64,000 nt of DNA from the IMG/VR virus record IMGVR_UViG_3300027747_002638; one strand, written 5' to 3'. Within the stretch, counting starts at the first letter, position 1. Every line of letters begins with the position of its first letter. Both the position numbers and the translations under genes were made by a program. The notes under the pieces were generated by a model. The model did not search any database. It was not told where the DNA came from and saw only the letters and a program-made list of their open reading frames with translations. The stretch is from a virus. Of this stretch, positions 9,072 to 50,330 are shown in pieces.

Positions 9072-9449
9072 ATGACAGCAGAACTATTCATCGTAGCATT
9101 AACAATCCTTGGCGAAGCTAGGGGTGAAACCTTTGAGGGTATGGCTGGCGTTGCTAGTGTTATACAAACACGCACCATAGAGCGTAAGCAAACGCCTAGC
9201 CAAGTGTGCCTGTCACCTAAACAATTCAGCTTCTGGAATGGTGGAGTAAGTGAAGCTACCAAGAAGAAGCTACTGGCAACAGCACAAGGTAAGAACGCTC
9301 TATACCTTGCTGATCTAGTCGTCCATAAACAGATGCCAGACATCGTGAGGGGTGCAAACCATTACCACGCCATCAGCGTCGCTCCTAGATGGGCTAGAGA
9401 TGCAAGGCTAGTGGCTACAATACGCAACCACAAGTTTTATAAGTTGTAA
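9072..9449 (+). CDS. cell wall hydrolase, SleB/CwlJ (Hydrolase_2) family
   Basis: ALTILGEARGE...VASVIQTR...QFSFWN...GANHYH...PRWA...IRNHKFY signature. Confidence 0.85.
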   Translation: MTAELFIVALTILGEARGETFEGMAGVASVIQTRTIERKQTPSQVCLSPKQFSFWNGGVSEATKKKLLATAQGKNALYLADLVVHKQMPDIVRGANHYHAISVAPRWARDARLVATIRNHKFYKL

Positions 9450-9731
9450 GTAGCTGAATACCAACGACTTGCGAGCGCAGGGACGCACCTTATGTAAGTC
9501 CTTTATAATCAGATACTTGCAAAGATTCTCGATCTTCTGACAAAACCTGAATGAACGCAAAAGATCAGGCCTGATCTTGCAACAAAACCTGATGGAACGC
9601 TAAAAATCTAAACCCCTAACCATTAACGACTTACAAAAGCGACCTCCCTGCAGCTGTAACTCGTTGATGGTGAACGAGATTTAAATGAAAAAATATCTTG
9701 CAAAATTTCTAAAATGTGATAAATTAAGAGT

Positions 9732-10646: not shown

Positions 10647-10822
10647 CAAAATTAGTTGATGTAAGTTGTTGGATACCAATGACTTACGACGGCAGGGACC
10701 CTTGCGTTGCAAGTCGTTAATGATCAATGAAATTTAAATGAAGATTTTTGTTGCGTTTTCTCTGAAATATGCTAAACTATACTTATAACAAGATAAGAAA
10801 TAACAAAGAAAGAAAAAATAAA

Positions 10823-11505: not shown

Positions 11506-11851
11506 TGAAAAAAATACTTTTCAAAATAAATAAAAAAACTTTTCGTCTTGCTGTAAAAAATGGTGAGAAGAAAAACTTTTTGCGTGAAAGATTTTTTTAC
11601 TACATCTCTGCGAGTTGTTTGAATCTTAGAGACCTCTTGTAAATAACTCACTATCAACGAGTTACGAGCGCAGGGAGGCCCCGCGCGCAAACCCTTGACT
11701 ATCAACGACTTACATAAGGCTAAACAGGACACATCATTTTAATGTTATGATTTCCTATTAAAATATTTCGTATTTAGTATTAGGCATTCTTCTATTTGAT
11801 TTTTTATAAAATAAAACTTGTGCTAAAAATAATCTGTGATACATTTAATTT

Positions 11852-12422: not shown

Positions 12423-12726
12423 TAAGTTGCTAATAGTCAACGACTTACGGCCGCAGGGACGCCGCCGATGTAAATCCTTGATAATCAAAGACTTACACCA
12501 GCAATTTTTTACATAGAGGCTCGCCAACCTTCAAAAACTTCGTCAATCTCTCTCTGCTTTTGCACAAAACTTTTGTTTGTATCGAGTGGAGGATTTTCAT
12601 TATCACCCCACGGATAAAAACTTTCTAAATTTTCGTTTAATAGTTTTTCTATATTCATTTTGACATTTTGAATGTTAGAGTTAATCCTAATATCACAAGA
12701 CATAAAAATATTTCCATTTAGACATC

Positions 12727-13362
12727 TTAATGCTTTTTATAATCTATTGCAAACTCATTCTTATCCCAACACTTGCGACAATCACCGCACTTGTTCCCTT
12801 GTTTAGAAGATGGGCAGTTAAAGTTTCCTAGCTTGCTCGCACCGCTAACGCACAAGCCAAGGCGTTGTGCAATTCCTACGGGTGCGGGGCCATCCATCAT
12901 AAGAGCAGACAAACGGATGGTAAGATTACTAGGCACTTCTCCACCTTGTTCGATATAGGTTGAGACAAAAGCATATTCACGAGTTGGAAGCCAAAAAGAA
13001 ATGTGAGGAAGATTCTTTGCAATCTTCACAATCTTTTCAATATGCCAAACACCTTGCAAGTCTCCTGAATCGTGCCACCTGAAATGTGGATTCTTAACTT
13101 TACCAATCAAATAAGTCATAGCGTCCACCCACAAATCGTTAGTAAGAGAAGCGAAACGCTTTTCCATAGCTTTCTGAACATTGGGGAAAACATAACGCCC
13201 TTTAAGAGCATAGCAAAAAGCACAAATGCTTCCTACAACATTCCGCATTTTTTGCCCGATAAGACAACGTTTTGCGGGCGTTGAGTAAGCATATCCAGGC
13301 ATCTTCGAGGGTTTTGAGAGTGTGCCAACAATCTCTTCGGCTTGTTTTTTGTTTTTGAACAT
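12727..13362 (-). CDS. GP88-like protein (phage gene product 88 family)
   Basis: SKMPG...C...ICAFCYALKG...FRWHDSGD...FWLPTRE...C-terminal CxxCxxCW. Confidence 0.8.
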   Translation of the reverse strand: MFKNKKQAEEIVGTLSKPSKMPGYAYSTPAKRCLIGQKMRNVVGSICAFCYALKGRYVFPNVQKAMEKRFASLTNDLWVDAMTYLIGKVKNPHFRWHDSGDLQGVWHIEKIVKIAKNLPHISFWLPTREYAFVSTYIEQGGEVPSNLTIRLSALMMDGPAPVGIAQRLGLCVSGASKLGNFNCPSSKQGNKCGDCRKCWDKNEFAIDYKKH

Positions 13363-13474
13363 AGAATTAGATTAACACTTTTTTTTCTTGTGACAAGTTT
13401 TTTTTACAATTAAATCTCGTTGACTATCAATGACTTACGACGGCAGGGACCCCGCTTGCGTAAGTAGTTAATAC

Positions 13475-14311
13475 TTAAGCAGTTACAGCTTCTTCTTCTT
13501 GAATTTCTTCGCTTTCTTTTCTATCAACAAAAGCGTCAAATCTTTTTTGTGCTTTGCTAGAAGCTGAGATGATAAAGTTTGTATCTTTTTTTAATACTTC
13601 TAACCAATTGGAAAGATAGCTGGCAGAATTGTTAAAACATTTTTCAGAATCAATTCCGCAGAAGTTAAGACAAAGACTAGCAAAAATCTCAGCGGTCAAT
13701 TCTTCTTTGCTATAATTCTGAGAACCAAAACCATTCTTAACATTATCGCCTGTGCTTTTATGCATAGCGTGGCCGATCTCATGAAATGCTGTGGAGTAAT
13801 ACTCCTCAACGCTGTTAAAGTTTTCTTTTGGGGGTAAATCAATCTTATGATCTTCTGGATAGTAACAGGCACGACTGCCACCATACTTAATCTGAATCAC
13901 GCACTTGTTGATTAACTTTTCTGCTTCTTCTACTGGTGAGAAATCCAACTTCTGGACTTCTGGCTGTTTCCACTTCATACCTTCAATATCACTCAAACCA
14001 AAAACCTTGTAGAATCTCATAAGAGGAAAGCCACCTGATTCATCATCTTTCTTTTTTAATAGTTTGTAATAAACTACCATGTGAGACTTAGCGCCTTTTT
14101 TGATTTTTCCACCTAGCTCTTTAATCTGATTAAATGTAAAAAAGAAATCATCAGAAGCTACCATGCGAAGTAAGAATTGATTAATGCCTCGATAACCTTT
14201 TTTGGAAACTCCGTTGCAAAGATCAAAAACTTTCCAAGGCTTCTGCCAAGGAATGACTCCTTTGTTGAGGGCTTCGATGAACTTTTCTGTGATAATTTCG
14301 TTTACTTTCAT
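13475..14311 (-). CDS. ardC: ArdC-like antirestriction protein (ssDNA-binding + zincin domain)
   Basis: GVIPWQKPW, YRGIN, TFNQI..LGGKIKKG, YYSTAFHEIGH, YSKEELTAEI. Confidence 0.88.
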   Translation of the reverse strand: MKVNEIITEKFIEALNKGVIPWQKPWKVFDLCNGVSKKGYRGINQFLLRMVASDDFFFTFNQIKELGGKIKKGAKSHMVVYYKLLKKKDDESGGFPLMRFYKVFGLSDIEGMKWKQPEVQKLDFSPVEEAEKLINKCVIQIKYGGSRACYYPEDHKIDLPPKENFNSVEEYYSTAFHEIGHAMHKSTGDNVKNGFGSQNYSKEELTAEIFASLCLNFCGIDSEKCFNNSASYLSNWLEVLKKDTNFIISASSKAQKRFDAFVDRKESEEIQEEEAVTA

Positions 14312-14463: not shown

Positions 14464-14640
14464 ATGAAGGTTTCTGGTTTACTTGAATCGTCTGCTCTAT
14501 ATAAAAAGTTTGTTGAAGAGCGAAATGAAATCCTAAAGCACAAATGGCTCGAAAGCGAAAAAGCTGGCCACGATATTGGTTTTGAAAAAGCTCTGTTAGA
14601 TTGGGTTTTCAATCACAGAGAAAAATGGCGTAATAAATAA
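14464..14640 (+). CDS. DUF4032-like small protein (Verrucomicrobia-type)
   Basis: SALYKKFVEERNEILKHKWLESEKAGHDIGFEKALLDW; 58 aa, missed by the ORF track. Confidence 0.7.
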   Translation: MKVSGLLESSALYKKFVEERNEILKHKWLESEKAGHDIGFEKALLDWVFNHREKWRNK

Positions 14641-14852
14641 TTCTTCGACCCTCTACGCTCATGATTTCGTAAAGGAATATCCTGCTCCTCTACCGCCTCT
14701 GACTCTGGGCGTTGGCAGGTTCATCCTCTTATGGGAGTTAGTCAGACTCGCCAAGAGAAGTATTGGCGTTCCGTTATATATAATCAATGTTGCCATTGAA
14801 AACTTTCCAGAACTGCAACCTTTCGGTCAACCTTCTCTGATATCGAAGAACT
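14641..14852 (-). ncRNA. candidate ~210-nt structured ncRNA
   Basis: Own promoter TTGCAC-N16-TAAGAT with no ATG at +1; ends pair (UUCUUCGA/UCGAAGAA); GNRA-capped hairpins. Confidence 0.6.
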
Positions 14853-14887
14853 AAAACTATCTTAACATACTTTTGTTTATGTGCAAT

Positions 14888-14915
14888 AAAAAAGGCGAGG
14901 TTTTTACGCCTCGCC
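14888..14915 (-). terminator. intrinsic terminator
   Basis: GGCGAGG/CCTCGCC stem followed by a T-run on the minus strand, downstream of 14940..15206. Confidence 0.75.
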
Positions 14916-14939: not shown

Positions 14940-15206
14940 TTAAACTGGCGAAAGACCACCAGCGATTCGATCATAGCGGAATTGCTTCACGCCAGAATCC
15001 ATACGACCAGAAAAGCAGAAGCTAGTGAATAGCTTGTTCCCTGCCTTGCTGATGGTATGAGAAGAAGGCTTGCTGATGATGTAAGTATAGACATCATTCT
15101 TGCCGTAGGGTTTGTATTCGATTAAATACCTTTGCCCCAAGAGGAAAAGGACGAAGTGTTTCAGATATGAGGTTGCGTATATGATTGCGTTTTTGATTTT
15201 GTTCAT
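14940..15206 (-). CDS. hypothetical early protein
   Basis: Leaderless promoter TTGTGA-N16-TATATT-N6-ATG. Confidence 0.65.
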   Translation of the reverse strand: MNKIKNAIIYATSYLKHFVLFLLGQRYLIEYKPYGKNDVYTYIISKPSSHTISKAGNKLFTSFCFSGRMDSGVKQFRYDRIAGGLSPV

Positions 15207-15336
15207 AGATTAAATATACCATACCTTTGTTTTTTCACAAGAAAAATCTTAAATTAAATCTCGTTGATGGTCAACGACTTACGCGCGCAGGGACCCGCCT
15301 TTTGTAACTACTTAATAATCAAATACTTATAATAGT

Positions 15337-16711: not shown

Positions 16712-16778
16712 AGGTTTAATATACAACAATTAGAGAAATAGTCAATAAAAATAATTCGTTGAATGATAAGGCTTTACA

Positions 16779-16869
16779 TACTAGGGGAAGGATTCGAACC
16801 TTCATTACGCTCAAATCTAGAGCTTCACGAGTATAAGTCGTGGGTCTTAACCAGTTAGACGACCCTAGC
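16779..16869 (-). tRNA. tRNA with TAT anticodon (Ile by anticodon) and long variable arm
   Basis: GCTAGGG/CCCTAGT acceptor, CACGA-CT-TAT-AC-TCGTG, 22-nt variable region with a GCTC/GAGC stem, GAAGG-TTCGAAT-CCTTC. Confidence 0.8.
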
Positions 16870-16908
16870 AATCAACACCAAGCCGTAGCTCAATGTCAGC
16901 CTCCGAAG

Positions 16909-18407: not shown

Positions 18408-19265
18408 TTAGGCGACCAGTTTCAAGAGGTCTTCGTCACGGGTTTTGCCCGAGAAGACTTTGAGCAAGTCAGTGCTGATACGCTCACTGTACTCGTAGCG
18501 TTCATCTGCAACATTACGAGTTAGGAACTGAGTTGACGCATTGTACAAATTGTACAGGTTGCGATCAGTATCCTCCTCATAAGAAGGATTACGCCACACT
18601 GCTTCGATGCCTTCACGCACCTTGGCAGAGATGATAGCCTTCTCCTCCAACTTGGTGAGCAAGGTCAAACCCTGCTCATCAGTGATTGCCTTCTGCGCTA
18701 ACCTGTTAAAGATTGCTACAGAGGTATCAACACTGGAGACCGCATTAGCCAACGCATCACCAATAAAATCCAGATTGACAGCAAGAGTGTGCCTCTTGGT
18801 CATGCTGAACTCCTTGGTCAACGATTTCATTCCGTTAGTGCAAATCAAACGGAGGAAACCGAGGGTTAATGAGACACGACTGGAGCGGTCATAACTGTTG
18901 TTAACAGTCAATCGCAGTCCGAGAATGTCTCCCTTGGCACGCTTGCCAACTGGCTTCAATTCAGTCTTGAAGTCAGTGAAGTCATAGCTAGCGTAGAAAC
19001 GAGCACCATCACGAACCACAAACTTTTTGGAGTTGTAGTTAGCGAGCATACTGTTCTCCGATAGCGACTCTTCGACCATCGTTACGAGGTCTGCATTCTT
19101 CACCACACCATACTGCTCGGTGCAAACTCCGAGTGTCATGGGTTCGGCGGTGTCACGGCGCACCATGCCGAAGTATCCTGTCCTCTTGCCGTCTGTTGTG
19201 AGGAGTGGCTCTTGGTGTACATCGAAATCGTATACACTTTGAGCGGGTTTTGTTGTTCTAGCCAT
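18408..19265 (-). CDS. DUF932-family protein
   Basis: LGVCTEQYGVVKN...NSYDRSS...LRLICTNGM...H; NLYNLYNASTQFLT. Confidence 0.8.
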   Translation of the reverse strand: MARTTKPAQSVYDFDVHQEPLLTTDGKRTGYFGMVRRDTAEPMTLGVCTEQYGVVKNADLVTMVEESLSENSMLANYNSKKFVVRDGARFYASYDFTDFKTELKPVGKRAKGDILGLRLTVNNSYDRSSRVSLTLGFLRLICTNGMKSLTKEFSMTKRHTLAVNLDFIGDALANAVSSVDTSVAIFNRLAQKAITDEQGLTLLTKLEEKAIISAKVREGIEAVWRNPSYEEDTDRNLYNLYNASTQFLTRNVADERYEYSERISTDLLKVFSGKTRDEDLLKLVA

Positions 19266-19447
19266 ATGTTAATCATACCATACTTTTAACTTATGACAAG
19301 AACTTTTTTCGTGTCATAAGATTCTGATACTCAAGTACTTGCCAATCCTGTGAAAGTTTTTTTATATTGTTGCAAGTGCTTACCTATCAACGACTTACGC
19401 GCGCAGGGAGCCCGCTCACGTAACTATATAATAATCAACTACTTATG

Positions 19448-47129: not shown

Positions 47130-47136
47130 GATATTT

Positions 47137-47223
47137 TGGAACGAGTAGGATTTGAACCTACGGATGGATTTAACCATCGGAAGTTTAGTAAACTTCTGCT
47201 TTAGACCACTCAGCCATCGTTCC
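47137..47223 (-). tRNA. tRNA-Ser(ACT)
   Basis: GGAACGA acceptor, GAAGT-TT-ACT-AA-ACTTC, long variable arm, GTAGG-TTCAAAT-CCTAC. Confidence 0.82.
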
Positions 47224-47232
47224 AAAAACTTT

Positions 47233-49872: not shown

Positions 49873-49940
49873 TTTTTAATTCTAATACAAAAATATATTC
49901 TTGTCAAATAATAAATGTTCTTTGAGTGATTCGATTTACT

Positions 49941-50330
49941 TGGACCCGAAAGGAGTTGAACCTTTGTCTTTTAAAAATCTAAATTAAAATACTACAAGTT
50001 TAGTTCTTTTTATTTTTTAGCTTTGTATAGATATAAGAACAAACATACTTAGCGTATTCTATCTTGAATATTATTATTTAAAGAACAGAAAAACTATTAA
50101 ATAATAAACATCTAATTACGCAATATTCCAGTAGATGCGTCGTGGATATCACGCTGTAGAACTTAGGCTACAGAAGCGGTCATCTCAACAAGAGAAACTC
50201 TTGCAGAAATATGACCTTTATATTTTGCTGTTTTGGCAGTTAATATAAGTGAAACTTTTTAAGGAGTCCTCGATTCAACCTCCACTTGCATTTCAATTCA
50301 TTTTCTTAAAATCGAAACCAGTACGGGCCC
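49941..50330 (-). ncRNA. ssrA: tmRNA (SsrA)
   Basis: 5' GGGCCCGUACUGGUUUCGA; 3' GGUUCAACUCCUUUCGGGUCCA with G3:U70; tag ORF 50237-50163 AKTAKYKGHISARVSLVEMTASVA*. Confidence 0.92.

Follow-up and report, generated by a model that had tools for sequence, protein, structure and literature searches.

Positions 14,638–14,853 on the minus strand of the window (the whole stretch of DNA analysed, 64,000 nucleotides of IMG/VR virus record IMGVR_UViG_3300027747_002638) are a stand-alone gene for a non-coding structured RNA, which is probably transcribed separately and belongs to an uncatalogued family found only in phages among the genomes and contigs searched. The fold, which covariation bears out, has P1 as its closing helix and P2–P3, P4–P5 and P6 as its arms, and the switching of palindromes in the loop of P6 points to a homodimer formed by a kissing-loop contact. 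We consider it likely that the gene encodes a trans-acting structured phage RNA that dimerises via the P6 loop and may have a structural or sequestering role linked to the tRNA island. The original prediction had placed a stand-alone structured RNA of no known family at this site, and the sharp conserved boundaries, the covarying helices and the lack of an Rfam match described below bear this out. The RNA gene itself was thus found, while the palindromic loop and the status of the window RNA as a long form of its family had both been missed.

The window has a G+C content of about 30% and encodes T4-type proteins, including rIIA and NrdA, and is on account of this protein content assigned to an uncultured T4-like phage; the source of the RNA gene is a freshwater (lake) phage of this type. 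Five tRNAs and one tmRNA were identified in the window by Rfam models and ARAGORN. The RNA gene lies inside an island of approximately 40% G+C, at 8–20 kb of the window, which is packed with 75-bp repeat modules and small genes (Table 1), and four tRNA genes are located 0.9–2 kb upstream of it on the same strand. The repeats form an intergenic family in which two palindromic boxes surround a GC-rich core with GCAGGG, and they bracket the small gene modules of the island, including the module that contains the RNA gene; presumably they are akin to the promoter/stem-loop cassettes (PeSL) of T4-type phages. The complementarity between a CCUGC of the RNA and the repeat-module core GCAGG, already regarded as weak when it was first pointed out, spans 5 nt and is within chance. 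The tRNA-like gene called tRNA-Ile(UAU), with its long extra arm, has 93-nt counterparts in two other contigs (L001, 8240–8332, and L007, 4371–4463), and a segment of about 49 nt, which begins at the D-arm and reaches as far as the start of the extra arm, is the same in phages that otherwise diverge.

Table 1. Coordinates of the RNA gene, its structural elements and its surroundings in the window
Feature	Position	Strand	Details
RNA gene	14638-14853	-	216 nt, first to last base of closing helix P1; conserved boundaries, covariation
RNA-gene promoter	-35 TTGCAC 14881-14886; TGn 14865-14867; -10 TAAGAT 14859-14864	-	16-nt spacer; from sequence
Intrinsic terminator of the upstream 88-codon ORF	14888-14915	-	GC stem followed by U-run; -21.3 kcal/mol
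P1, 5' strand	14843-14853	-	RNA nt 1-11; pairs with 14638-14648 (nt 206-216)
Accessory domain	14754-14838	-	RNA nt 16-100, 85 nt; inserted between P2 5' strand and P3
P3 hairpin	14735-14749	-	RNA nt 105-119; loop L3 14739-14745 with invariant GACU
P4, 5' strand	14715-14719	-	pairs with 14681-14685
P5 hairpin	14694-14711	-	enclosed by P4; 10-nt loop L5 holds AGUC
P6 hairpin	14650-14675	-	RNA nt 179-204; 10-nt loop 14658-14667; palindrome UCAUGA 14659-14664
DUF4032-like gene	14464-14640	+	58 codons, convergent; Pfam PF13224, E = 1.1e-5
ArdC-like anti-restriction metallopeptidase gene	13475-14311	-	island gene
GP88-like gene	12727-13362	-	island gene
DUF932 gene	18408-19265	-	island gene
75-bp repeat copies	9447-9521, 10662-10736, 11640-11714, 12423-12497, 13413-13487, 15257-15331, 19373-19447
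tRNA-Ile(UAU), tRNA-like	16778-16870	-	93 nt, long extra arm
tRNA-Ser	47136-47224	-	unusual anticodon ACU
tmRNA gene	49940-50330	-	full-length; Rfam 109 bits; ARAGORN: 24-residue tag peptide

The limits of the gene are defined both by its own signals and by comparison with other phages (RNA position p corresponds to window coordinate 14,854 − p). A 20-mer from the RNA retrieved seven viral contigs, and alignment and blastn showed that the identity to these, approximately 95%, is confined to 14,635–14,853, the flanks being unrelated. In the seven contigs the element is preceded by a tRNA gene and a TTGACA promoter, and some of the few differences compensate each other in one hairpin, the loop of which remains GNRA. 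The minimum free energy of the stretch lies below that of shuffled sequences (z = −3.1). On the upstream side, a terminator precedes a TTGCAC-N16-TAAGAT promoter, as had been described, and separates the 88-codon ORF (14,940–15,206) from the RNA gene; the same hairpin was also listed on the plus strand by the promoter/terminator scan. The promoter is of the sigma-70-like, extended −10 type, and its end is separated by 5 nt from the first paired base, with an expected transcription start at 14,852. That the RNA has a promoter of its own, as the original prediction held, is reinforced by the family as a whole: 54 of 75 distinct upstream flanks carry one at a fixed distance, counted as a match of at least 8 of 12 positions in which the spacer is 16 nt and exactly 5 nt separate the −10 box from RNA nt 1. 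By our reading of the sequences, most of the remaining flanks, the window included, have TTGCAC-16-TAAGAT at the same place. Downstream of the RNA, no classical terminator was found.

Short exact words from the window RNA were of limited use for the collection of relatives. Scans of viral contigs with two 14-mers returned almost exclusively chance matches (two true relatives in approximately 230 loci), and scans with a 17-mer and an 18-mer reached the close long-form clade only, their further matches in L239, L240, L243, L244 and L245 being due to chance. Consequently, tRNA islands were fetched instead, via the D-arm of the 93-nt tRNA-Ile(UAU) that accompanies the RNA, a 17-mer of which is present in 56 viral contigs. 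Searching these 56 islands with nhmmer revealed relatives whose similarity to the window RNA is restricted to its 3' half. These represent a short form of approximately 130 nt that has a promoter and a closing helix of its own. A nearly invariant block of 21 nt (14,695–14,715 in the window), which covers the end of the 5' strand of P4 together with the 5' strand of P5 and loop L5, is common to both forms, and when used as a search pattern it retrieved 38 contigs from viruses and at least 118 from metagenomes. The same pattern gave no match in 185,579 prokaryote genomes, one per species. After removal of duplicates, 93 distinct sequences remained among the matches listed, 75 of them short and 18 long. 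Most relatives are thus short, and the window RNA is a long form in which the 85-nt domain is added to the short-form core; a covariance model built from short forms only (R1) recognised it at 14,638–14,762 with 57.5 bits (E = 2.5e-12). Applied to the other tRNA islands, the covariance model yielded no further divergent members, the best extra matches having E = 0.39. One copy of the RNA was present in each of three phage records searched whole (100%, 86% and 64% complete).

The collection of homologs and the covariation analysis that had been proposed as a check gave a clear outcome, in that the helices covary across these 93 relatives. The short forms were aligned with MAFFT without any use of structure, and the proposed fold was compared with controls in which the pairing partners were slid by 1–3 columns. 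In the short forms 91.7% of the cells were paired, vs 41–54% in the slid controls, and compensatory changes were observed in 19 of 41 pairs, amounting to 224 compensatory cells vs 17–57 in the controls. Likewise, 95% of the cells were paired in the long forms, vs 35–47% when slid. G-U pairs outnumbered A-C pairs by 227 to 86 and by 83 to 25, and this excess of about 3 to 1 fits an RNA on the minus strand.

Every helix of the family fold is paired in the window sequence. P1, the 5'/3' closing helix of the original prediction, covaries across the family; it is 100% paired in the 18 long forms, and its short-form equivalent has five pairs with compensatory changes. P2 appears, by our reading, to be maintained in the long form by compensatory changes, with UAUC/GAUG instead of CAAG/CUUG. 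All five pairs of P3 show compensatory changes in the short forms, and a P3 pair of the long forms occurs as U-A, C-G or U-G. The closing pair of P5 covaries between U-A (45 sequences) and C-G (21). The pairings CCUGC/GCAGG and CGCC/GGCG, once proposed as potential pseudoknots, proved real as pairings, although they form nested helices, P4 around P5. Loops L3 and L5 contain GACU and AGUC, respectively, which are unvarying in all 93 sequences, making a loop–loop contact through four invariant bases plausible. As both sides are invariant no covariation is possible, and the contact is therefore treated here as putative. The predicted UCUGACU/AGUCAGA helix would survive in the form of this loop–loop contact, with its conserved part shortened to the 4 bp of GACU/AGUC.

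The accessory domain of the long form is built of one stem, one three-way junction and a pair of hairpins capped by GNRA loops (14,821–14,824 and 14,790–14,793). It is absent from the 75 short forms, and in the 18 long forms its helices are 100% paired. One of the loops is GAAA, GCAA or GUAA and the other GAAA, GCAA or GAGA. The distal hairpin has three covarying pairs, and this number and an invariably GNRA-type loop were found for the predicted UCAAUG-GCAA-CAUUGA hairpin. The UGACC-GAAA-GGUUG hairpin was correct with respect to its loop, which is always GNRA (GAAA, GCAA or GUAA), although its stem comprises 3 bp only. Conversely, the CGCCAA/UUGGCG hairpin was rejected: its pairing is disrupted in 11 of the 18 long forms, and the competing helix between nt 16–26 and nt 89–100 is 100% paired. 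The 3' strand of the accessory basal stem, nt 93–100 (14,754–14,761), resembles the P1 5' strand, nt 1–11, and could pair with the P1 3' strand to give an alternative fold like that of the short form; the covariance model aligned the window in this manner. The alternative pairing may be a trace of the origin of the long form, or a conformational switch.

The evidence for dimerisation comes from P6, the stem of which covaries. In the 9–10-nt loops of P6 the palindrome is flanked by purines (AAA-UCAUGA-G in the window, AA-UCAUGA-G in relatives). A perfect palindrome of at least 6 nt is present in 92 of 93 sequences, the last one having CUAG with a flanking G-U. Five palindromes were observed, UCUAGA in 71 sequences, UCAUGA in 11, GUCGAC in seven, GUGCAC in two and UCCGGA in one, although the sequences are related and the independent switches few, about three or four. 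Two 216-nt RNAs with the same bases at all of the other 210 positions carry UCUAGA and UCAUGA (L341, L321), and two with one other difference carry GUCGAC and GUGCAC (L301, L367). Since a contiguous palindrome cannot pair within its own loop, the constraint points to pairing between two copies of the RNA. The same palindrome-switching argument for symmetric kissing loops has been made for OLE and GOLLD, where it was confirmed by cryo-EM (PMC12286853).

A structured RNA that remains a monomer could also carry such palindromes if they served as the binding site of a dimeric protein, or as an operator or restriction-type site at the DNA level. All five palindromes are indeed classical 6-bp DNA sites as well, and the convergent DUF4032-like gene is a frequent neighbour: of the 142 instances with enough flank, 70, or about half, have a convergent copy whose end directly follows the RNA, and among loci that are related to one another and in some cases cut at an end, both were present in 50, only the RNA in 14, only the protein in two and neither in 32. 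The RNA is accordingly also found without the protein. Moreover, five unrelated palindromes would not be expected of a protein site while the protein stays 64–98% identical (27 invariant residues in 32 sequences), and the palindrome always resides in the loop that caps a covarying RNA hairpin, with a geometry like that of the dimerisation initiation site (DIS) of HIV-1 RNA. The AlphaFold model of the protein is a plain helical hairpin (pLDDT 80), for which Foldseek found nothing below E = 3 in the PDB, and an Atlas search with the protein returned its own kind only and no functional lead. The DUF4032-like protein is a possible, though unsupported, partner of the RNA. Taken together, an explanation of the palindromes through protein or DNA is unlikely.

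The position of the gene next to tRNAs raises the question of a cis-acting element, either a module for processing or termination within the tRNA operon or, for the convergent DUF4032-like mRNA, a regulator in antisense through which the 3' end of that mRNA would run. A tRNA was found within 3 kb of the RNA in 92 of 138 distinct contexts, a proportion inflated by loci that were fetched via a tRNA word, and it was on the same strand as the RNA in 92 out of 92. The distance was at most 300 nt in 32 contexts, and in some loci a tRNA begins 8–10 nt after the RNA. On the other side, the original prediction had the 3' end of the RNA abutting the stop codon of the DUF4032-like gene, and the stop codon (14,638–14,640) does overlap the last 3 nt of the RNA; the next terminator-like hairpin on the plus strand lies beyond the RNA. 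However, a dedicated promoter lies at a fixed distance from the RNA, and in the window the nearest tRNA (Arg) is located 1056 nt upstream on the same strand, with no same-strand gene after the RNA before another promoter is reached. The convergent gene is missing in half of the loci, and a 130–216-nt fold with invariant loops far exceeds the needs of a processing signal or an antisense target. A cis-acting role is therefore improbable.

Transcripts from this region appear to be present in lakes. Sixteen freshwater RNA runs contain part of the stretch, and assembled contigs cover the RNA in four of these runs, from four lake studies, the runs having been chosen for containing the stretch. In three of the four runs nothing but the RNA was covered within the 1.8 kb examined. 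Such metatranscriptome contigs attest to presence in RNA libraries rather than to ends, strand or level, with DNA carry-over possible, and the gaps in cover that runs X2, X3 and X6 show over the 1.8 kb are not to be taken as evidence of silence.

The Rfam comparison that had been proposed as a further check agrees with the view that the RNA is of no known family. The window RNA had no match at gathering score in Rfam 15, and at E values up to 10 only chance-level matches were obtained (at most 23 bits vs thresholds of 40–90, E = 0.5–10). Likewise, the short-form relatives had no Rfam match, and the Rfam 15 covariance models of GOLLD, ROOL, OLE, raiA, manA and pRNA did not match the window RNA. 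A blastn search of the region (11-nt words) against 50,697 phage records, T4 included, was also without match. No description of the family was found in the literature by core sequence and topic, and it may be among the unnamed candidates of a survey of IMG/VR with 10,000 candidates (PMC10690425).

An RNA with approximately 21 invariant nucleotides, unpaired stretches among them, may alternatively be suspected of catalysis, as a new self-cleaving or self-ligating ribozyme, or of mimicry, as a decoy for a host nuclease that targets tRNAs; either activity would be compatible with dimerisation. Phage tRNA islands counter host anticodon nucleases, and the confinement of the RNA to phages and its place in a tRNA island are in line with a decoy. 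Set against this, no known ribozyme class in Rfam matches, signs of cleavage sites are lacking, and an anticodon arm resembling that of a tRNA is not discernible, ARAGORN reporting neither a tRNA nor a tmRNA at the RNA gene. We regard a catalytic or mimicking RNA as very improbable. Finally, the probability is negligible that the locus holds no RNA gene but a short protein-coding gene (an ATG-started ORF of 45 codons is present at 14,659–14,796 of the window, and many short forms lack stop codons on their antisense strand) or a fold that arose by chance among the many repeats of the island, as the ORF is not conserved, with 14–17 codons in 12 of 18 long forms, no ATG in one, 1–2-nt indels inside it and no counterpart in the short forms, and as the compensatory changes and the G-U excess fit an RNA on the minus strand.

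A trans-acting, dimerising RNA hence remains the preferred reading, and its steps can be outlined as follows. Transcription would probably start from the sigma-70-type, extended −10 promoter of the gene itself, and the 3' end of the RNA probably lies at the U-rich tract that follows the closing helix, either directly or after trimming. P1 closes a junction of three arms, with the 85-nt domain and its two GNRA loops inserted in the first arm, and pairing between L3 and L5 may lock the first two arms together. The P6 loop is predicted, from sequence comparison, to pair with that of a second copy, giving a symmetric kissing-loop homodimer, which could in turn be the unit of a larger RNA-only assembly. 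By analogy, the most likely role would be that of a structural or sequestering RNA tied to the phage tRNA island, as suspected for GOLLD and ROOL. A bolder version, which is possible but doubtful, holds that the RNA is a subunit of an RNA-only assembly in which the loop acts as a fast-evolving code for self-recognition, and that the assembly shelters or binds a component of translation, e.g. the phage tRNAs, or traps a host attacker. If true, the palindrome code would keep the RNAs of different co-infecting phage lineages from mixing, and the RNA would be a compact functional relative of the GOLLD and ROOL cages.

Structured RNAs continue to turn up in phage tRNA islands, and GOLLD and ROOL were only recently shown to form RNA-only cages. 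At 130–216 nt, the present family is suited to routine in vitro work and comes in two natural forms, with and without the accessory domain. The candidate dimerisation signal differs between otherwise identical RNAs, which provides a simple and testable model. The family could thus serve as a model for the role of phage RNAs, for the evolution of RNA quaternary structure and for diversifying selection on kissing-loop specificity. For genome annotation it adds an uncatalogued family, with well over a hundred lake-phage contigs.

Several known RNAs share individual properties with the window RNA. Phage T4 encodes two small stable RNAs, species 1 and 2 (rnaC and rnaD), in its tRNA cluster; these are processed from the tRNA transcript, whereas the window RNA has its own promoter and no blastn similarity to them. 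The pRNA of phi29 is a phage RNA of 120–170 nt that has its own promoter and oligomerises via loop–loop pairing. However, it employs two different complementary loops to form a ring on the prohead of a podovirus, in contrast to the single self-complementary loop found here in a T4-like myovirus. The HIV-1 DIS is a hairpin with a 9–10-nt loop that contains a 6-nt palindrome and purine flanks, and its variants switch the central bases while staying palindromic. The P6 loop has the same loop geometry and purine flanks, and GUGCAC occurs in both. This likeness concerns the mechanism only, as the DIS links retroviral genomes for packaging and the window RNA is a small non-coding RNA of a DNA phage.

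Among phage-borne RNAs, the manA motif of cyanophages and other short RNAs of less than 200 nt form RNA-only oligomers (preprint 10.64898/2026.07.01.735769), although manA differs in its fold, precedes genes, presumably acting in cis, and assembles into a 60-mer cage, and the window RNA gave no Rfam match to it. GOLLD and ROOL are, like the window RNA, phage-encoded and often located in or beside tRNA islands. They form RNA-only homo-oligomers via symmetric kissing loops, with palindrome switching as the evolutionary signature, and GOLLD combines a conserved 3' part with a variable 5' part (PMC12286853), as does the family described here. Conversely, they are 3 to 6 times larger (approximately 580 to more than 800 nt), assemble into 8- to 14-mer cages and show no similarity to the window RNA in sequence or at the level of covariance models, and the one evident intermolecular contact of the latter, predicted from its loop, would by itself give a dimer. 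The window RNA is a member of none of these groups; the closest to it by mechanism and setting are GOLLD, ROOL and manA, and the closest with respect to the loop is the HIV-1 DIS.
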